From: a phage | DNA: 64,000 nucleotides | Direction: 5' to 3' (one strand) | Sequence record: PX915677.1 | In this document: positions 1,871 to 49,202 of the stretch, piece by piece | How positions within the stretch are numbered: position 1 is the stretch's first letter | Layout: the number at the start of each line of letters is the position of its first letter | Made by a program: the position numbers and the translations under genes | Notes under the pieces: model-generated | Told to the model about the DNA's origin: nothing | Database searches by the model: none | Seen by the model: only the letters and a program-made list of their open reading frames with translations

Positions 1871-2779
1871 TTATGCCGCCTGACGTGCCGCCATAATTTC
1901 AGCCGCTTTACGCAATACTTCTTCCTCTTCTGCTTTCGCCGCTTGTTCACTACGGGTAGCAACCGTTGAAGAGATACGACCGCGCAGACTTTCTAACTTC
2001 TCCTGCATAGCTGCAACAGTCTTTTCCATTTCATCAGCGTATGAATCGAGTGATTCTAATTCCTTGCTTGATGCGTTCATCAGATAATCATCCGAGATCG
2101 CTACCGTTGAGGCCGTGACTTTCTTGATGAGTGAGTCGAAAGATTTTTTAACCTTGCCAACTTCTTCACTTAAGGCGATAGTATTATCGCTGGTAGCGCC
2201 ATTGCGCTCATCAGCCAGTAATTTGGCTTCAATACGGATTGCATTCAAGCGTTCAACTAAAGCGTAAATATCCTGATTAAAATCTTCCTTGTTTTTCGCC
2301 GGAATTTGCAGATGTGCCGCCACGTTGTCATTACAACCCTTGTAAAAGTTAGGGTTATCAACTTCAATTTCACGGCCTAAAGCAAAGTTTTCGAAAGCGT
2401 TTGACCAGCGAGCGCGGTTTTGTTCCATTTTGGCCTTAATTTGTGCTTCTTTCGCGTCTTCTTTAGCTTTCGCCTCACCTTCCAGATTAATCCACTTTTT
2501 ACGACCATTTGCCGCATCGGTGTTAAACTTGATAGGAGTTAAGAAAGTAATTGCAGTGGCAATCACATCCATATCACGAAAACGTTCAGTTAACAAGAAG
2601 TCAACCGCCGTCTGCAATACGTCCAGCTTTTTACCGTTACTGCGGAAGTGCTGCAAGTGCCCTAACAGGAAGTTAGAAACATCTTGTTTGATCGCCGCGT
2701 TATTGCTACGAATGTTGTTAGCCAGTGCGTTAAAACCAGATTCTTTTACCAGATTAAAGATTTTAGCCATGATATTCAC
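1871..2779 (-). CDS. Hypothetical protein, coiled-coil rich (about 300 aa)
   Basis: ORF track; long ORF with AAGGTG upstream of the MAKIFNL start; Ala/Glu/Lys-rich C-terminal region. Confidence 0.6.
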   Translation of the reverse strand: MNIMAKIFNLVKESGFNALANNIRSNNAAIKQDVSNFLLGHLQHFRSNGKKLDVLQTAVDFLLTERFRDMDVIATAITFLTPIKFNTDAANGRKKWINLEGEAKAKEDAKEAQIKAKMEQNRARWSNAFENFALGREIEVDNPNFYKGCNDNVAAHLQIPAKNKEDFNQDIYALVERLNAIRIEAKLLADERNGATSDNTIALSEEVGKVKKSFDSLIKKVTASTVAISDDYLMNASSKELESLDSYADEMEKTVAAMQEKLESLRGRISSTVATRSEQAAKAEEEEVLRKAAEIMAARQAA

Positions 2780-2789
2780 CTTTCAATTG

Positions 2790-4272
2790 TAAGGGCGCTA
2801 TTGCCCCGCTCTCTATGAGCTTGTTTAAGTCACTATTAACTTAACTATAACCGCTAACTATTCAGTAGTTATAGGTAAGTGGGGCGGTCTTATCAGGAGT
2901 TAACCTTGCCGCCCCCTTATCCGTGATGTTTCATCTGGTATCTTTAATTAGTCGCTATAAACGAAGCCGACCTGATAGCGATGATCAATCATCACAATAA
3001 GGCTATGCGTCCGACTCTATTTAATTACATTACTGTAACCGTCGGCAATATCGTCTACTTTGTTTTCGCTCCCGCTTATCCTTTTGTATCAGCTCTCTAT
3101 CGCTAGTCATCGCCCACTACGGGATACTATTGCGAAAGAGTCACTAACCGCCTAGTATTCCGGCGTTTTATATCTTTCAGCAGGTTTACTACATAACCCG
3201 ACTATGTACTTTCATCTTGTGATGAATCTCAAGCCGTTCACATCGTAAACGTTCGCATTAAACCTTATTGTTAAATAGCAATTTGCCACTTTTTAACCAC
3301 TCCCCGCCGCCCTCAATTGGGCGTTAATTCTTCGGGATTGCCTACCCTGATTAACTTCTTTCACTGTAGCACCTTGTTAGCGATGGCCGCCGCTACCCTT
3401 AACCGTGGGCGATTAGTTTAAGCCGTTGCGTGTACTCAATGAATCCGTTTATCAATGGTGACGTTTCCAGTAAGGGAATGTAAAACTGTTTACCCTGATA
3501 ATTTAGGGAGTTTTACGCCGTTTTATCTGGTATGCTTTCCGATGGTTATTATCATCAAGCATATTCAACCGATATAGGAGAATGTTTAAATTATTAAAGA
3601 GCGGTAAATCTATCAGTGTGCTTTCTCACACTATGCAACTGTTAGCCGTTGTTACGCTTTTCACTGAAGCGATGATTTGCTTAGTGAGTGCTCATTATGA
3701 ATCATGTTGTTTTCGCTGTCAACCGCTTTTTAGTCTTTTTTCGTCGTTCCCGCTATTGGGAGGATATATCAATCAGCTTTATTTGATTGAAGATTAAGCG
3801 GTGAGGCTTAACTTATGACTCATATTGTTAAAGAGCGTTTAGCCTTTTAAAGTGTCTGCTAATCACTGTCACATTGAAGGCTTACTGATTCATTAACAGG
3901 CCGCCTACACCTGAACTAATCGCTGCACTATGTGCCACCTTTCCCGCGATACGTTGATTTGGGAACTAGTTAGCGATGTTTTGCTAACTTGTGGTTAGTA
4001 TGGACTACTTTAACCACGTTTGCAACTCTTTTTATCATCTTCTTTTAATTCCTTTCCCTTATCTCGCGTGAATCTATGCGAAAGGGCAAGATGATAAGTT
4101 TTTAAAGAGCGGGATTTTTTAAGTCATCGCTGACTATGCTCACTATATATCAGGCTTTTTCCGGTGTCAATACTCTTTTTTGAGAATATTTTCACTTTCT
4201 AGCCTGATTTTTAAAGAGCGGGGGCAAGTTTCCTTGCCTTGTATGTTTTACATCGTACCCGATGAATTGAAG
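2790..4272. other. Large ORF-free region (about 1.5 kb) with four direct copies of TTAAAGAGCG(G)
   Basis: No ORF of 60 aa or more with a credible RBS on either strand; motif copies near 3591, 3823, 4097, 4210; lies downstream (minus orientation) of a TAATGTATA motif at 4273-4281. Confidence 0.6.
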
Positions 4273-4281
4273 TATACATTA
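4273..4281 (-). promoter_or_regulatory. TAATGTATA promoter-like motif, minus orientation
   Basis: Plus strand tatacatta at 4273-4281; same 9-mer found upstream of four other genes in this window. Confidence 0.35.
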
Positions 4282-4456
4282 ACCAATGATGGTTGCAATA
4301 GGGTAAAGCAAATTATTTTAAACTTTTTTATAGTGGGATAGATAAAAGAACGGGCGCGCGTGATACATCATAGGAAACGGCTTGTAAAGCAACAATAAGC
4401 GTCCTAAAACGCATCACAACGAGCTAAAAGGGAGTAAGGCATACAATCACCTCATA

Positions 4457-4482
4457 AAAGAGAAAAGCCTCACTAGGAGGCT
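4457..4482 (-). terminator. Candidate intrinsic terminator after the 6265-4559 operon
   Basis: AGCCTC(actag)GAGGCT hairpin 4466-4482 flanked on plus strand by an A-rich run 4457-4465 (T-rich on minus strand). Confidence 0.4.
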
Positions 4483-4558
4483 TACAGGAAGGATTAGAGA
4501 ATCAGATAAATTATGACCATAGGCATGACTACGGCACAATACAGGAGAAAGATTAAGC

Positions 4559-4933
4559 CTATGGATTTACACATTGACCGTTACCGGATGCCATTTCATT
4601 CATGGACTCATCAAAGAGCGTCAACGATGAGCGCATCAAGTGATCGACCGTAATTTGCTTACCAGTGGTTTCATTTACCAGTTGAATAGTTTTATCATAT
4701 GATTGTACATGTTCAAAATCATTTACATGTAAAATAATAACCTTAGGTGACTTTTTACCAGTTTCATAGTTTTCTACAATATAGGTGCACTGTAAACCGT
4801 CAACCGTAGCAGGGGAGAACGTTGCAGCCTTAACGCTACCCATAGATGACAGCAGGACACCTAACAGGAGAACAACCAGAAAGAAGCCTACAAATACTTT
4901 CACTACGAATTTAATAATACCCATGATAATCAA
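4559..4933 (-). CDS. Membrane-anchored small protein (N-terminal hydrophobic segment)
   Basis: ORF track; N-terminus IIKFVVKVFVGFFLVVLLLGVLLSSMGSVKA is signal/anchor-like. Confidence 0.55.
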   Translation of the reverse strand: MIIMGIIKFVVKVFVGFFLVVLLLGVLLSSMGSVKAATFSPATVDGLQCTYIVENYETGKKSPKVIILHVNDFEHVQSYDKTIQLVNETTGKQITVDHLMRSSLTLFDESMNEMASGNGQCVNP

Positions 4934-5023
4934 CCTTTAGTTAGAGAATGTAAGAATACAGCATATCAGCGACGAATAACGCCACCGTAGCAACGAACAA
5001 GCAACGCCAAAAATAATCATGAA

Positions 5024-5299
5024 TCATTGGTTGCTATCCTCGCCAAAAAATGATACGCTGATTTGTTCCACTTCTTCCAGCGACAGAAGAATCCCGCGTT
5101 GGGCTAAATACTTCCCAATAGTTAGATAATCTTGCACTAAGCAGACAATAGGAAAGCGTATATTTTGTATCTCACCTTTGGAAAGAAAAGACAAATAACC
5201 AACGTCGGTTGATTCATCAAAGGATAGTGTAACGCCACCGTAATTATGCGTGTCAATCAGCGCAATAGTTTCATTCCCCATAACGTTTCCAATCCTCAT
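5024..5299 (-). CDS. Hypothetical protein
   Basis: ORF track; in operon with neighbours, short overlaps. Confidence 0.45.
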   Translation of the reverse strand: MRIGNVMGNETIALIDTHNYGGVTLSFDESTDVGYLSFLSKGEIQNIRFPIVCLVQDYLTIGKYLAQRGILLSLEEVEQISVSFFGEDSNQ

Positions 5300-5501
5300 A
5301 ATGATTAACTAGTGCCTGATAATCGTCAGATGATAACTCACCGCCTAAATAGGCAACGGTTATGCGTGCTTTGTATTCTGACAAATTGCATAGCGCGGGA
5401 GCGGATAACCTGCTTTCGCCATAACATCCTAGCACTTCAACGATACAACCGTTTAAAGATACTGATTTATTAATCACGATACGGTTAGCCATTAATATCA
5501 T
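5271..5501 (-). CDS. Hypothetical protein
   Basis: ORF track; operon context. Confidence 0.45.
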   Translation of the reverse strand: MILMANRIVINKSVSLNGCIVEVLGCYGESRLSAPALCNLSEYKARITVAYLGGELSSDDYQALVNHYEDWKRYGE

Positions 5502-5748
5502 CCTTAATTAGCCCATGATTGAGCAGGTTAGCCAGCGACAAATCACCGTCAATATAGATTGATTTGAAATCTTCACGGGTAATTTCGAAATCAGCAAAGG
5601 CTAGCCAATCTTTAAGAGGCTGATATTCCATCCTGCAAAAAGTGATAACAGGCAAGATTATCTGACCATCAAGTGTATTAAACAGGATAGATTGCCCACC
5701 AACAAAACAAGAAAAGCCGTTTGATAACTTAACTTCTTTGATAGCCAT
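5485..5748 (-). CDS. Hypothetical protein
   Basis: ORF track; operon context. Confidence 0.45.
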   Translation of the reverse strand: MAIKEVKLSNGFSCFVGGQSILFNTLDGQIILPVITFCRMEYQPLKDWLAFADFEITREDFKSIYIDGDLSLANLLNHGLIKDDING

Positions 5749-5773
5749 TTTTACACTCCTGAAAATAGGTTAT

Positions 5774-6265
5774 TTACTTACTAGCCTTAATACAGTTGGC
5801 TAAATTAACGTGAACGGTATAAACAGCGTTATTAGCGTTATTATAAACAGTTGTAGCAATCATCGACTCATTGATCGGGCCATAACTCACTAGATTGGTT
5901 ACAGCTTTAACGTCTCCGTAACGTTGTACAGTGCCAAATGTCACCATATCCGCATCGTTATCGGTACGCTTAAGCACCAAATCATTGTTAGGCTGATTAT
6001 CTAACGTTTTAGATTGAAAGAGAACGCCATCATTAGTAACGTTGCTAAATTTCATCTTTAGCACGATATTATTGCTGTCACTATCCGCACCGTTGCAAAT
6101 CATCCAACCCTTATTGATGGAATTAGAGAAGACACTAGCCGCATCAGTTGCAGGAGCAGGACTAGCGATAGCCTTATCAGAAAGAGATGTGACCAGTGCA
6201 CTAACACCGATCGCGGCAATCAGTGCATAACTTGCCAGATTAACTACCTGCATTGCTTTAGCCAT
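5774..6265 (-). CDS. Secreted protein with Sec-type signal peptide (163 aa)
   Basis: ORF track; AAGGAA RBS; N-terminus MAKAMQVVNLASYALIAAIGVSALVTSLSDKAIA then polar mature region. Confidence 0.6.
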   Translation of the reverse strand: MAKAMQVVNLASYALIAAIGVSALVTSLSDKAIASPAPATDAASVFSNSINKGWMICNGADSDSNNIVLKMKFSNVTNDGVLFQSKTLDNQPNNDLVLKRTDNDADMVTFGTVQRYGDVKAVTNLVSYGPINESMIATTVYNNANNAVYTVHVNLANCIKASK

Positions 6266-6303
6266 TTCGTTATTCCTTAGATAGATTCAATCAACTGTCA
6301 TCA

Positions 6304-6331
6304 ACTATATAATAAAGGAAAAGACTGTCAA
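6304..6331 (-). promoter_or_regulatory. Sigma70-like promoter for the 6265-4559 operon (-35 TTGACA, 16-bp spacer, -10 TATAGT)
   Basis: Minus-strand TTGACA = plus 6326-6331; TATAGT = plus 6304-6309; about 35 nt upstream of start codon at 6265. Confidence 0.4.
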
Positions 6332-6439
6332 CCATCTATTTTCTAACTTTCTTGCATCCTACTGAAAACTAAAGGAATTTAATTTGCTAAACTTTCCATA
6401 CTCAGAGAATCAGCTTACTTCTTATTGTTACTTTATAAC

Positions 6440-6900
6440 ACTACGGGTAACAGACCAACAGACCAGGACAAACGGGGATACAACAACCGCAGGACAGACC
6501 ACGGGGAAACATAGCAAGATAGTGCGGTAATAATATACCACTTAAATAATTGTATAACTCAAACATCAAAGACGTTCGTACTTCGTACTCACAAAGGCAC
6601 GCTGAAAAAGGAAAGTAATAAAAGAATAATAACATACAACCATTATCCACTTAATTAATACATATATCATTATTGCACTCATAATCATTACTATTGAAAC
6701 TATTTACACTCAAACTATGGGGAGCTGTGACCATCATTAATGGCATTATTAGTATGCTAATTAGTTGGCCTGTACAGTGCTAGCCTTTCTCTCACTCTTT
6801 AAAGGGGAACTAAATAAACGGGTAGGTAATGTATTGGGTAGTATACACGGGGAAAGAATAACGGGGAGTAGGCACGGGGAAAGGTGGAACGTTGAAAGGG
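6440..6900. repeat. Short direct repeats in control region: ACGGGGA (5 copies) and CAGACCA (3 copies)
   Basis: Read directly near 6448-6510 and 6845-6885. Confidence 0.4.
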
Positions 6901-7033
6901 AAGGTAAAGGCATTGCCAATAACCCTTTTTTAAATGAGGACTCCCCCTTTTTGAGAAACACGCGGCGAGCGGCTAGCCCCACTCGGTCAAATCAGAATTT
7001 TAAACTCTTATATATAAGGTTGAAAGAGAACTT

Positions 7034-7198
7034 ATGTGGAAAATTAAGTTAATCATTAAGCAATTCAAATGTGATCATGAGTACTATCGGATACGCAAAG
7101 CTTACGGGGATGAAAGAGTTCACACCCTTTATAAGTCCACTTGGAGATGTAGTAAATGTGGTAAGCTTAAACACAGCACATGGATGGACAGGCCTTAA
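7034..7198 (+). CDS. Small zinc-ribbon-like protein (54 aa), below ORF-track size cutoff
   Basis: ATG 7034, stop TAA 7196-7198; MWKIKLIIKQFKCDHEYYRIRKAYGDERVHTLYKSTWRCSKCGKLKHSTWMDRP; C-x-H and C-x2-C pairs. Confidence 0.3.
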   Translation: MWKIKLIIKQFKCDHEYYRIRKAYGDERVHTLYKSTWRCSKCGKLKHSTWMDRP

Positions 7199-7385
7199 CG
7201 TGACATAGCCTTTATGGGGGTGCCTTAATGTGAAGTAGTCATCAAAGATGACGTCCCCTTTATGTCTTAACTTTATCAGAGGGATGTATGACAGAAGATG
7301 AATACGGTAGCTTCTCTGAAGAAGACTACGAAAATGAATACAGGTATTCTCACGGGTGTTAATGTGAGGTGGCCTTTACGGGTAG
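7193..7385 (+). promoter_or_regulatory. Three copies of a ~30-bp element, CCTTAA(C/T)GTGA..T.G followed in copies a and c by GCCTTTA(T/C)GGG
   Basis: Copies at 7193-7220, 7223-7238, 7357-7385; located just upstream of the first plus-strand genes. Confidence 0.35.
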
Positions 7386-7430
7386 GTCTTATGATGTGCC
7401 CTCTATACTCTTATTCAGAGGAGAAGAATT

Positions 7431-47357: not shown

Positions 47358-49202
47358 TTAGTGTGTATGCATCCAGTTAAGTCCAATCTGACAATCAGAT
47401 GCCAGAGGACATTCCATATTCAGATACTCGCCAGCTTTCTTAACACAAAGCTCGGTGTGCTCTTTGAGTTTCTGTACATCATTACGGTTTACTGAGAATT
47501 GACCTTCATCGTGCATATCAATTACCTTAGCACAACGAACCTTATCTTTCTCAATCCACTTGTTAAGGAACATCATAGCATATTTCATAACAACAGCACC
47601 AGCACATTGCAGGAGTGTGTTAAGGGCTTTATGAACCATAACCTTACCAGTGGCATCCCGTCTCATTGTAATCTTACGACCATCAACTCCAATCAAGTAT
47701 CCTTGAGCAGCTTTCTCTGTCATACGATCAATGAGGATTGCAATACATGGGTTCTCTGCTAAGAAACGTGCTCGCATCACTGAACCTTCGTCAGCCCCAC
47801 CACCTACAATTGAACCAAGCTTAGCATCACCAGCACCATAGTTGAATGCGTAGATAAACGTCTTAGCGTTGTCACGAGTAGGAAGACCAGCAAGTTTCTG
47901 GTTGTGGGAGTGGATATCACCTTCAAGGAGAATATCACGATACATAATAGCAGAAGCTAAACCACGTTCTGCCAGAGCTTTCTTAGCTGGGTTGTTCTCT
48001 TCAATTGCCTCAGCAAGCATATCCCTACACTCTTTAATGAGGTAGTGAGCGAGCATACGAAGTTCAAGTCCAGAACCATCATACCCTAAGAATACTTCTT
48101 TACCAGCGGGTATGTAATATTTGTAAGCACCTATAGGTTTATCTTTCTTCCCCGGCTTACCTTTCTCGTAAATTACGTTAGTACCTTTTCGTATATAACA
48201 ACCATCAGGAACAACGTTAGTAATAACGAAAGGACGAGAGTGATCACTGTCTGAGTTATAGTCAGACTCAAACAAACTGCGACACTCGTGACCAAACAGA
48301 CCACGGGAGGGAATATTAACCACGATACGATGTTTGAATCGAAAAGTCGGCGTAGCGCAGCTGTTAGCTTCTGCCGAAAGTTTACCATCTTCGCGTTCCT
48401 TTGCTATGAGTCCACTGATAAGACCTAGCCTGTGAGCCGCTACAACGCGTCTCTTAAGCAAACTTCCGACACTCCCTAGCTCACCCCCTAACCCTTCTTC
48501 AAGAGTCTCCTCGAGGTTTGTAGGAGCTGTAGGCCACTTGTTTGATGTGGCTAGTGCTTTCTTAATCTCATCAAACGTTACAGGATTACGGCGATTAGGG
48601 TTCAACCCCAAACCAAATACGTAAGCCTTCATGTAATTCTTAGTCTTAAACCTGAAATGCTTTTCTAAGAACTTCTTAATATCAGCGTCAACCATCTCGG
48701 CTGTCTGCTTCTGCTTAGCATTGCCTCGCATCCAAGCAGTATACCATGCTTGGTATGTTCCATACTTTCTCATATCTTTCTTAATTTCGAAAGTATTCCA
48801 AGGCTTCTTAGATACGTTAAACTCTGGAGGAAGGAAGCCCTCATCCATAAGAGCTTCTTTAACTCGTGCATCTTTAGATGGGTCAAAGTCTACATATTCG
48901 ACACAGGTGAAAGCTCCACCAATATCTTCTCTCTTCAGCCCAACCCTATCACAATAGGCTTGAGGCCACTTCTGTAAAGCTCCAGACTTCTTAAACGGCT
49001 TCATATAAGTAGAGCCATCTAATCTCATCTTAGGTAAGAGAGGAATCAACTCTCTGTCAATATTAACAATAATCTCTTTAAGGAGGTGAACATACCACCG
49101 AGCATTTCTTCGGTTGAAACTCACTCCGTGCTTTGCTTGCTTAGAGATTATATCAGCGACAGTCATCTCTGTCAAAAATGGAAGAGCGTCCGGGTTGCTC
49201 AC
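47358..49202 (-). CDS. DNA polymerase, family A, polymerase domain only (614 aa)
   Basis: Motif A region LGYDGSGLELRMLAHY, motif B RDNAKTFIYAFNYGAG, motif C VIDMHDEGQF; no exonuclease motifs in this ORF. Confidence 0.85.
   Translation of the reverse strand: MSNPDALPFLTEMTVADIISKQAKHGVSFNRRNARWYVHLLKEIIVNIDRELIPLLPKMRLDGSTYMKPFKKSGALQKWPQAYCDRVGLKREDIGGAFTCVEYVDFDPSKDARVKEALMDEGFLPPEFNVSKKPWNTFEIKKDMRKYGTYQAWYTAWMRGNAKQKQTAEMVDADIKKFLEKHFRFKTKNYMKAYVFGLGLNPNRRNPVTFDEIKKALATSNKWPTAPTNLEETLEEGLGGELGSVGSLLKRRVVAAHRLGLISGLIAKEREDGKLSAEANSCATPTFRFKHRIVVNIPSRGLFGHECRSLFESDYNSDSDHSRPFVITNVVPDGCYIRKGTNVIYEKGKPGKKDKPIGAYKYYIPAGKEVFLGYDGSGLELRMLAHYLIKECRDMLAEAIEENNPAKKALAERGLASAIMYRDILLEGDIHSHNQKLAGLPTRDNAKTFIYAFNYGAGDAKLGSIVGGGADEGSVMRARFLAENPCIAILIDRMTEKAAQGYLIGVDGRKITMRRDATGKVMVHKALNTLLQCAGAVVMKYAMMFLNKWIEKDKVRCAKVIDMHDEGQFSVNRNDVQKLKEHTELCVKKAGEYLNMECPLASDCQIGLNWMHTH

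Follow-up and report, generated by a model that had tools for sequence, protein, structure and literature searches.

Our analyses have focused on a compact cassette of five genes, referred to here as A to E, located in a 64,000-nucleotide stretch of phage DNA (sequence record PX915677.1; this whole stretch is referred to as the window). The window derives from a Kuravirus exhibiting 97.6% DNA identity to phage PGN6866. The cassette adjoins the right physical end of the phiEco32-like (Kuravirus) genome, where it lies on the minus strand, and it is orthologous to and syntenic with phiEco32 gp128-gp125 and SU10 CDS125-CDS121 (90% DNA identity). Its features are as follows:

6425..4468, minus strand: movable block, delimited by the breakpoints of the relocated cassette in EcoN5 and IMEP8
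6331..6304, minus strand: sigma70-type promoter, with TTGACA at 6331..6326, a 16-nt spacer and TATAGT at 6309..6304 (11/12 matches in our scan)
6265..5774, minus strand: gene A, 163 aa, a short form of phiEco32 gp128
5748..5485, minus strand: gene B, 87 aa, orthologue of phiEco32 gp127
5492..5271, minus strand: gene C, 73 aa, the first 8 nt of which lie within the end of B
5281..5024, minus strand: gene D, 85 aa, orthologue of phiEco32 gp126, with its first 11 nt inside the end of C
4924..4559, minus strand: gene E, 121 aa, orthologue of phiEco32 gp125
4483..4455, minus strand: intrinsic terminator, a hairpin at 4483..4465 (AAGCCTC-CTAGT-GAGGCTT) followed by TTCTCTTTTA

The unit itself is already known. 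The SU10 paper assigns CDS 69-125 to the early genes and describes a sigma70 promoter 5' of CDS125 and a terminator 3' of CDS121, the former being listed in SU10 Table S2 as a (predicted) early promoter, and the corresponding early gene class of phiEco32 has already been reported in the literature. The rightmost early operon of phiEco32 and SU10 has the same promoter sequence and terminator as the present cassette and four or five genes in common with the window; in phiEco32, gene C is encoded but unannotated. The function, topology and fold of the products are unpublished, and our literature search found no paper on any of the five proteins. What is new in the present work is the predicted anchor topology of A, the putative signal peptide and barrel of E, the variability of the middle proteins, and the movement of the cassette as a block from promoter to terminator.

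Coding evidence, control signals and mobility of the cassette

Each of the five open reading frames is preceded by a Shine-Dalgarno-like site located 7-11 nt 5' of its start, and their dN/dS values versus relatives (0.07-0.38) are indicative of purifying selection. The comparison set consisted of GenBank phage records, a scan of IMG/VR having yielded three loci only, and the presence of genes was assessed against a baseline of approximately 99 records with a portal at at least 90% identity. On this baseline, the numbers of records carrying each gene are 94 (A), 87 (E), 78 (D), 77 (B) and 21 (C). Gene E is absent from the relatives VTCCBPA_211 and PE006 and is thus dispensable there. Identity between phages is 75-93% for A and E and 41-70% for the alleles of B-D.

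Our profile and word-indexed searches with A and E found no homologue of the cassette proteins outside the Gordonclarkvirinae: a HMMER search of 1.84 billion representatives with a profile of A recovered nothing beyond the family apart from two spurious repeat proteins, and the word-indexed searches with A and E (one profile including the SU7-type sequences) returned only Gordonclarkvirinae-like contigs. No match for any of the five proteins was obtained in Pfam, NCBIfam or PADLOC, PHROGs returned only their own unannotated or mislabelled families, and sequence profiles of the PDB gave nothing informative for A, E, B and D. None of the proteins belongs to the annotated exclusion or immunity families (viz. 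T4 Imm and Sp, and the Sie, Cor and Llp types) in PHROGs, Pfam, NCBIfam or PADLOC, and no similarity to lysozyme-inhibitor, anti-defence or enzyme families was detected in these four resources or among PDB sequences. An Rfam search likewise gave no match within positions 2500-7400 of the window. Two database labels attached to these families, viz. "terminase" for E (phrog_13168) and "polymerase" for B (phrog_14176), were rejected, since neither is supported by Pfam or NCBIfam and the proteins concerned are, respectively, a predicted exported beta-barrel of 121 aa and a protein of 87 aa. These labels are misleading and are spreading through RefSeq records, and they are corrected here.

The promoter lies about 38 nt 5' of the start codon of gene A. 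Transcription would start near 6297, and the leader would measure about 32 nt. In the whole 64-kb window, 4 sites have at least 11/12 matches versus 1.9 +/- 1.3 in shuffled sequences, so that the count is weakly above chance, with near-consensus matches about 2-fold over shuffles. All 4 of these sites are on the minus strand, and 3 of them form a cluster where the early region begins (6331, 4170 and 3722). BoxA-like motifs (CGCTCTTTAA) are present 3' of the spacer promoters just downstream and are absent from the cassette. The 28-nt promoter site is near-invariant in 10 of 18 distinct related loci, one of them from another genus, with the consensus TTGACAG(Y)(Y)TTTTCCTTTA(W)TATATAGT. Positions 4484-6500 contain no gp36-type phage-sigma motif (TAATGTATA) on this strand, and the sole promoter reading the cassette is of the sigma70 type.

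At the cassette's opposite end, the terminator would form, as RNA, a 7-bp stem (AAGCCUC/GAGGCUU) with a 5-nt loop and the tail UUCUCUUUUA. It is kept among relatives, with a freely varying loop sequence, and the same position is taken in SU7 and NC-B by another stem (AAGCGCC...GGCGCTT), which represents a compensatory variant. A terminator is annotated at this location in the SU10 and 4E8 records. With its own promoter and terminator, and without a boxA-like leader, the cassette appears to be insulated.

In EcoN5 and IMEP8, the cassette occupies another position in the genome, between a gp120 homologue and the genes that follow it. The relocated block begins some 95 nt upstream of the -35 element and reaches the terminator loop, and where the cassette lies in this way within the early region the terminator has been lost. 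Because the whole of 6425..4468 is found at the other position, the cassette behaves as a single movable module, and its own promoter and terminator together with its variable position make it an autonomous, moron-like accessory element.

These results bear out the anatomy proposed in the initial annotation, which had described a TTGACA-16-TATAGT promoter, five open reading frames and a terminator: the promoter is present with 11/12 matches, the hairpin and T-run are conserved in relatives, and the five frames are real genes. The early expression that it had also proposed is supported by the homology of the cassette to the early-class genes of SU10 (CDS121-125) and phiEco32, and agrees with the lack of a gp36-type motif in front of the genes. 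Hence, the cassette is very probably a real and self-contained early gene unit of a phiEco32-like phage of Escherichia coli.

Predicted products of the five genes

Protein A contains a single N-terminal hydrophobic segment of 22 residues (residues 7-28, nt 6247..6182), followed by the motif Ala-Ile-Ala (residues 32-34) and then by a beta-rich, predicted periplasmic domain of approximately 130 aa. The cysteines of this domain (Cys57 and Cys158) are conserved, the pair being invariant in the A family, and in every form of the protein the segment is followed by AIA, AVA or VQA. Long forms of A (286-290 aa) carry a hydrophilic domain of 128 aa, ending in KKNKKQPIKP, ahead of the same hydrophobic segment; this domain is encoded in about 42 of the approximately 99 Gordonclarkvirinae records (about 40%), including those of phiEco32 and SU10, whose gp128 differs in this respect from A of the window. 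The position of the 128-aa domain ahead of the segment indicates an N-in/C-out membrane anchor in the long forms, and the segment of A is more likely to be a membrane anchor than a cleaved signal peptide. The AlphaFold2 (AF2) model of A is poor (pLDDT 48), yet barrel-like.

The first 33 residues of protein E (nt 4924..4826) resemble a signal peptide, with Lys5 and Lys9, a 16-residue h-region, and a predicted cleavage at VKA/ATF, i.e. between Ala33 and Ala34, as assigned by visual inspection and alignment. The N-terminal region is unconserved across genera, and conservation begins exactly at the predicted cleavage point. The SU7-type orthologues from a sister genus have a canonical signal peptide of 20 aa (MKIKLAVCSALFAISSVSHA/AVF), the end of which is aligned with SVKA/ATF of the window. 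Based on these observations, E more likely has a cleaved signal peptide than a membrane anchor. The mature domain would comprise 88 aa (nt 4825..4562), within which Cys46 and Cys118 are conserved and invariant in the family.

The structure model of E (pLDDT 82) consists of a helix at residues 2-29, a low-confidence linker, and a small up-and-down beta-barrel, the first and last strands of which each contain one of the conserved cysteines. A fold search found designed barrels as the best matches and otherwise generic small barrels and uncharacterised phage proteins; the modelled fold is a generic one. The PliC/MliC/PhiA lysozyme inhibitors, which are 8-stranded barrels, were considered for E and rejected: the identity is 5%, they rank far below the designed and many unrelated barrels, there is no match to MliC in Pfam, and their conserved motifs were not seen, leaving a resemblance in general fold only. 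No relation of A and E to each other was detectable.

The middle genes (B, C and D) encode acidic proteins (pI 4.2-5.3, net charge -2 to -8) with no hydrophobic segment, on account of which they are presumably cytoplasmic, and they vary between phages from 1 to 3 copies. The alleles of B (pI 4.5) are strongly divergent (45-100% identity), whereas those of D (pI 4.2) fall into two deep classes, with >80% and 41-46% identity. Gene C is homologous to SU7 gp101, the second gene of the SU7-type cassette (hhalign probability 92%, E 5e-7), against which B reaches a probability of 33%. The match of B to D is of low probability, with an E value of about 0.003. For B, C and D, paralogy is supported in part only.

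The initial annotation had assigned a Sec signal peptide to the first gene product and an N-terminal anchor to the last. Both proteins do have an N-terminal hydrophobic segment and an Ala-X-Ala motif; however, the topology of the long forms points to an anchor for A, and the alignment with the SU7-type proteins to a probably cleaved signal peptide for E. The description of the operon as envelope-targeted is supported for A and E only; B, C and D are acidic and have no such segment. None of CDS121-125 is among the 34 proteins of the SU10 particle/lysate proteome, in agreement with products that are not virion components.

Possible functions of the cassette

These features, considered together, suggest a division of the products between two compartments. 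A and E would each carry a small beta-rich domain to the periplasm, where one cysteine in the first strand and one in the last strand of each domain would probably form a disulfide. A would probably remain attached to the inner membrane through a signal anchor of N-in/C-out orientation, and E would probably be cut by signal peptidase I between Ala33 and Ala34 to give a soluble beta-barrel of 88 aa. The two or three middle cistrons would supply small acidic proteins without export signals, present as divergent, exchangeable and partly paralogous alleles, which may act in the cytoplasm in host takeover or anti-defence and be subject to an arms race. Because no catalytic signature is seen in the five proteins, they are most likely stoichiometric binders. 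The guess we favour is a binding of A and E, early after infection, to a target in the envelope or periplasm, candidates for which are the DNA-delivery or cell-wall-cutting machinery of an incoming phage, or a host envelope factor. The best explanation of the cassette as a whole, which we hold tentatively and at somewhat below an even chance, is that of an insulated early unit with periplasmic A and E and cytoplasmic B-D that has a role in exclusion or protection.

It is also possible, if on balance unlikely, that the cassette serves mainly in cytoplasmic anti-defence or host takeover (e.g. through inhibitors of restriction or immunity), with B, C and D as its active products and A and E as passengers or minor contributors. 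The Gordonclarkvirinae are reported to be remarkably resistant to restriction-modification without a known inhibitor, and B-D, which are small, acidic and encoded in the first early unit, exhibit a deep allelic divergence and changes in copy number among otherwise similar genomes that are typical of an arms race. However, B-D show no similarity to known anti-defence proteins (in Pfam, PHROGs, NCBIfam, PADLOC and PDB sequences), the dN/dS values (<0.4) give no sign of positive selection by this pairwise measure, and A is retained in more records than any other gene of the unit, B-D being frequently absent. The net charge of B-D (-2 to -8) also differs greatly from the charge of DNA mimics, e.g. 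Ocr. A chance origin of the locus, with open reading frames that are random or decaying and a promoter and terminator that are fortuitous matches, could draw on the modest excess of promoter matches over shuffles (about 2-fold by count) and on the restriction of the homologues found to one phage subfamily; the comparative data nonetheless refute it, leaving a probability close to nil, as all five frames are under purifying selection with Shine-Dalgarno sites, 77-94 phage records retain them (21 in the case of C), the promoter is conserved, as is the terminator with its compensatory stem variant, and E models confidently.

Two further explanations place the function in the envelope. A and/or E could time lysis from the periplasm, as does the T4 antiholin RI, or disrupt the envelope in the manner of spanins, and the predicted N-in/C-out single-pass character of A, whose segment has Ala, Gly, Ser or Thr at 10 of its 22 residues, and the conserved cysteine pairs in the periplasmic domains of both proteins would be in keeping with this. 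Such a role is improbable in view of the early sigma70-type promoter, which serves the cassette without any phage-sigma motif, the large distance of the cassette from the structural and late genes, the beta-rich nature of the A and E domains versus the coiled coils of i-spanins, and the long form of A, which would not be releasable from the membrane. Additionally, residues 1-56 of A and 1-45 of E are without cysteine, and the lack of a lipobox cysteine in either segment excludes A and E from the o-spanins and lipoproteins. Still less probable is an alteration of the receptor (O-antigen or LPS) that stops adsorption to the infected cell, which the initial annotation had suggested as receptor modification. 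The known receptors of the Gordonclarkvirinae, viz. O-antigen and LPS core, are surface glycans, and two of the products are predicted to reach the envelope; against this, Pfam and NCBIfam revealed no domain of a glycosyltransferase, acetyltransferase, flippase or any other enzyme, and a lytic cycle would be short for the remodelling of existing LPS. The enzymes known to modify O-antigen are multi-pass membrane proteins; A and E, in contrast, have a single segment each and small barrel domains of a binding type, and B-D have no segment. The holin, spanin, lipoprotein and receptor-modifying-enzyme readings were rejected.

Relation to known phage systems and significance

The preferred reading, with A and E as periplasmic binders, has a functional analogue in Imm and Sp of T4, which are small early superinfection exclusion proteins of a virulent phage that act by binding and not by catalysis. 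A and E resemble them in being small and early and, as predicted, in being directed to the periplasm or inner membrane of a cell that has just been infected. The cassette proteins differ from them in that no sequence similarity is detected in PHROGs or Pfam, and Spackle (T4 Sp) is helical whereas E is modelled as a beta-barrel. Superinfection exclusion is thus a plausible guess, and a role of A and E in exclusion or envelope protection, resembling Imm and Sp in logic and not in ancestry, may be entertained as a possibility of rather low likelihood. The class I early genes of T7-like phages (0.3-0.7) are likewise small accessory host-interaction genes read from a host-RNA-polymerase promoter at a genome end, and the morons of lambdoid phages, like the cassette, have their own promoter and terminator and occupy differing positions in related genomes; neither group shows homology to the cassette. 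The phage carrying the cassette is virulent and hence, unlike for lambdoid morons, a role in lysogenic conversion does not apply.

The discovery is modest, as the unit has been published and its function is a guess. A more far-reaching outcome, which we consider doubtful, is that A and E found two new families of disulfide-closed periplasmic beta-barrel binders, directed against competing genome delivery or a host envelope factor, and that B, C and D form a new family of small anti-defence proteins that would explain the resistance of the Gordonclarkvirinae to restriction. Kuraviruses are common candidates for the therapy of E. coli infections, and their early genes are almost wholly uncharacterised. 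The cassette offers concrete candidates both for exclusion, in the form of its predicted periplasmic binders, and for anti-defence, in the form of its fast-changing and presumably cytoplasmic set, and these are functions that matter when phages are combined in cocktails.

Organization of the operon and its downstream spacer

The operon region (window 4400-6400) is matched by 82 phage records, the hosts of which are all Escherichia or Shigella. The top match is Escherichia phage PGN6866 (97.6% identity), and phiEco32 and SU10 are 90% identical over this region; these matches assign the window to the genus Kuravirus (Gordonclarkvirinae), to which all three phages belong. The operon, on the minus strand, corresponds to phiEco32 genes 128-125 and SU10 CDS125-121, the genes closest to the right genome end. 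The right end of phiEco32 (position 77554) aligns with window ~6974, and the window sequence continues into left-end genes; the window therefore spans the physical genome ends (region about 6782-6974; terminal repeats of 193-bp are reported), and its source is thus a circularly joined or permuted assembly. Between the terminal repeat and the operon promoter lies a putative 40-aa, strongly hydrophobic ORF (MIMSAIMIYVLIKW...; 6566-6688, minus strand) with no PHROG match; relatives carry unrelated hydrophobic ORFs of 44-57 aa at this position, one of them annotated as a CDS in VTCCBPA_211.

The promoter, five ORFs and terminator claimed in the initial annotation are all present and correctly located.

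Predicted features of the operon (A to E, the five ORFs in transcription order) and further spacer promoters
6331..6304, minus, sigma70-type promoter (TTGACA-16-TATAGT; 11/12 matches in the scan)
6265..5774, minus, A, 163 aa
5748..5485, minus, B, 87 aa
5492..5271, minus, C, 73 aa
5281..5024, minus, D, 85 aa
4924..4559, minus, E, 121 aa
4483..4455, minus, terminator (AAGCCUC, 5-nt loop, GAGGCUU, U-rich tail)
4170..4142, minus, further sigma70-type promoter in the spacer (11/12)
3722..3694, minus, further sigma70-type promoter in the spacer (11/12)

A Shine-Dalgarno-like site is found 7-11 nt 5' of every ORF; B overlaps C by 8 nt, and C overlaps D by 11 nt. For all five, dN/dS against relatives is 0.07-0.38, so A-E are real genes, and a non-gene reading is less likely. 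The whole window holds 4 sites with at least 11/12 matches against 1.9 +/- 1.3 in shuffles, so that the count alone is weak evidence for a promoter; the minus strand holds all four, with those at 6331, 4170 and 3722 clustered together. Ten of the 18 distinct related loci, NC-B of another genus being one of them, carry the 28-nt operon promoter site with hardly a change, and the placement and conservation of this site are strong evidence for the predicted promoter. The sole perfect sigma70 consensus in the window (12/12, TTGACA-17-TATAAT; 49147-49175, minus strand) is situated at the very start of a 614-aa ORF (47358..49202). No motif of the gp36 phage-sigma type (TAATGTATA, at most 1 mismatch) occurs on the minus strand of 4484-6500, hence the unit has only a host-type promoter. 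In Kuravirus relatives the terminator stem is kept and its loop is variable, and SU7 and NC-B have another stem (AAGCGCC...GGCGCTT) at this position. Table S2 for SU10 gives the promoter as early and 5' of CDS125, the SU10 class 'early genes 69-125, 1-3' contains the operon orthologues, and the early cluster of phiEco32 has been called diverse and of unknown function. The early timing originally proposed is thereby supported, on the basis of homology and of secondary citations. The operon is ordinary in kind and its outline is already published.

An ORF-poor spacer of ~1.7 kb (about 2780-4460; no ORF >71 aa, no Rfam match) extends from the operon terminator to the gp124 homologue. Window 2504-3745 shows ~90% identity with SU7, a high conservation for non-coding DNA; this phage is of a different genus, and identity between the operon proteins is only 40-60%. 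The spacer contains four exact copies of CGCTCTTTAA on the minus strand (4220..4211, 4111..4102, 3837..3828 and 3603..3594), each shortly downstream of a sigma70-like promoter. The expectation for the whole window is 0.16 copies, none of 100 shuffles reaches 5, and relatives with the spacer in the fetched locus all have three to six copies, invariably on the early strand. As RNA these copies read CGCUCUUUAA(A/C/U)AA, which is near-identical to the boxA antitermination element of the E. coli rrn operons (UGCUCUUUAACAA) and contains most of that of lambda (CGCUCUUA). The operon leader has no boxA-like CGCTCTTTAA element and the operon ends at its own terminator. The occurrence of the copies at spacer promoters and their absence from the leader suggest two kinds of early transcription, viz. 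an insulated first unit as against boxA-equipped promoters for a long early transcript. For phage 7-11, a relative, the antitermination mechanism was stated to remain 'to be defined', and our literature search found no paper connecting boxA with phiEco32. An exact TAATGTATA motif is also present just downstream of the operon terminator (4273-4281, minus strand), upstream of the first boxA-like copy and overlapping a 9/12 sigma70-like site (4298..4271); it could be an extra middle promoter beyond the six reported for phiEco32.

Proteins A and E

The hydrophobic N-terminus of E (residues 1-33; Kyte-Doolittle 2.94) closes with SVKA|ATF. Conservation between genera is lost in this N-terminal region and starts at the aligned Ala|Ala, and E orthologues from the SU7-type cassettes of the sister genus have a signal peptide of textbook form (MKIKLAVCSALFAISSVSHA|AVF), the end of which is aligned exactly with the window Ala|Ala. 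This pattern is the sequence signature of a cleaved signal peptide, and E is therefore more probably soluble in the periplasm than anchored. The model of E (31 sequences, pLDDT 82) consists of a helix (2-29), a disordered linker and seven assigned strands (from 45-52 to 110-119); the invariant Cys46 and Cys118 lie in its first and its last strand, respectively, and a predicted disulfide between them probably closes the barrel. Apart from members of its own family, E matches three uncharacterised proteins of phages in BFVD. The name 'terminase' given to E in RefSeq/GenBank relatives traces to phrog_13168 only, lacks domain support and was rejected.

Protein A starts in the window with MAKAMQ, followed by a 22-residue hydrophobic segment (residues 7-28; best 19-residue Kyte-Doolittle mean 2.07) and SDKAIA|SP. 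A long form of 286-290 aa is present in phiEco32, SU10 and six further loci examined, in which a hydrophilic domain of 128 aa, with KKNKKQPIKP at its end, precedes the identical hydrophobic segment:

L001 (phiEco32) 5845-6246, first 128 aa of gp128, N-terminal domain of long-form A, phrog_15368 family

Judged from its position, the segment in the long form must be an N-in/C-out membrane anchor. The initial annotation had placed a Sec signal peptide on the first ORF and an N-terminal anchor on the last; as the long form of A implies an anchor and E looks cleaved, these labels were probably swapped. An Ala-X-Ala follows the segment in all forms of A (AIA, AVA or VQA), so cleavage of A is possible. 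The phrog_15368-type domain is absent from the window, where a short leader that carries a ribosome-binding site of its own stands in for ~390 bp of the phiEco32 sequence. This family (~125 aa) has members in 147 phage records, with Klebsiella siphoviruses, Phapecoctavirus-like myoviruses and phages of Pantoea and Pectobacterium represented; within Gordonclarkvirinae the domain is encoded in ~42 of ~99 records and is fused to A in all 8 long-form loci examined. That it is fused in Kuravirus to an anchored periplasmic domain points to a possible functional connection. In the periplasmic part of A (~130 aa) Cys57 and Cys158 are invariant, and a poor AlphaFold model (pLDDT 48) hints at an antiparallel barrel.

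Variation of the cassette and its middle genes

B, C and D are acidic (pI 4.5, 5.3 and 4.2) and have no hydrophobic segment. In the same genomes, allele identity is 41-70% for B-D versus 75-93% for A and E; between B-D allele classes synonymous divergence is saturated, with dN/dS at most 0.5. The number of B-D type genes ranges from one to three, and C is present in only 21 records. The second gene of the SU7-type cassette is matched by C (hhalign 92%, E 5e-7) and weakly by B (33%), which makes paralogy of B, C and the SU7 gene likely; D, a possible further paralogue, can be aligned with B in one register (E about 0.003). The names 'polymerase' and 'DNA polymerase B region' for B trace to phrog_14176 only, have no domain support and were likewise rejected.

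Among ~99 records with a portal at >=90% identity, A is present in 94, E in 87, D in 78 and B in 77; E is absent in VTCCBPA_211 and PE006. In EcoN5 and IMEP8 the gp120 homologue and the next early genes are separated by a block that is homologous to window 6425..4468; its -35 is weakened (TTGTCG) and its terminator lost, the homology stopping within the hairpin. This relocated cassette is just 5' of a gene for a 129-aa Hydrolase_2 protein (SleB-like cell-wall hydrolase; L009 4269-4658 in EcoN5). NJ01, 172-1, PE006 and VTCCBPA_211 have another upstream region (TTGCAA-17-TATTAT), and in XT32, which has yet another, the place of the terminator directly behind E is taken by an additional 107-aa protein that has a classical signal peptide (L014 4108-4431). 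By these comparisons the cassette is accessory; A...E form its stable frame, and the middle varies.

Possible roles of the operon products

No relatives of the operon proteins were found outside Gordonclarkvirinae: a search with the A profile against 1.84 billion representatives returned family members only, the search with E returned Kuravirus-type and SU7-type proteins only, and Pfam, NCBIfam, PADLOC and PDB sequences gave no matches. SU10 CDS121-125 are missing from the mass-spectrometry list of 34 SU10 proteins, in agreement with products outside the virion; virion components are the less likely reading. Gordonclarkvirinae use O-antigen and LPS core as receptors and are reported to be restriction-resistant without a known inhibitor. 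From these null searches, the SU10 list and the receptor and restriction reports, we infer that the products are small binding proteins and not enzymes; receptor modification, which had been suggested, and lysis control are less likely roles for them. The envelope functions initially guessed are a reasonable hypothesis for two of the five products, A and E; B, C and D, which lack hydrophobic segments, are presumably cytoplasmic.

T4 Imm/Sp, for A and E, and the T7 class I genes, for the operon, serve here as analogies, with no claim of membership. Early in infection, A would be tethered and E free in the periplasm; the two would most likely protect the envelope of the infected cell or exclude later-arriving phages, and B-D would act as cytoplasmic takeover or anti-defence factors. 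This division of roles within the operon is a tentative proposal in which our confidence is low.
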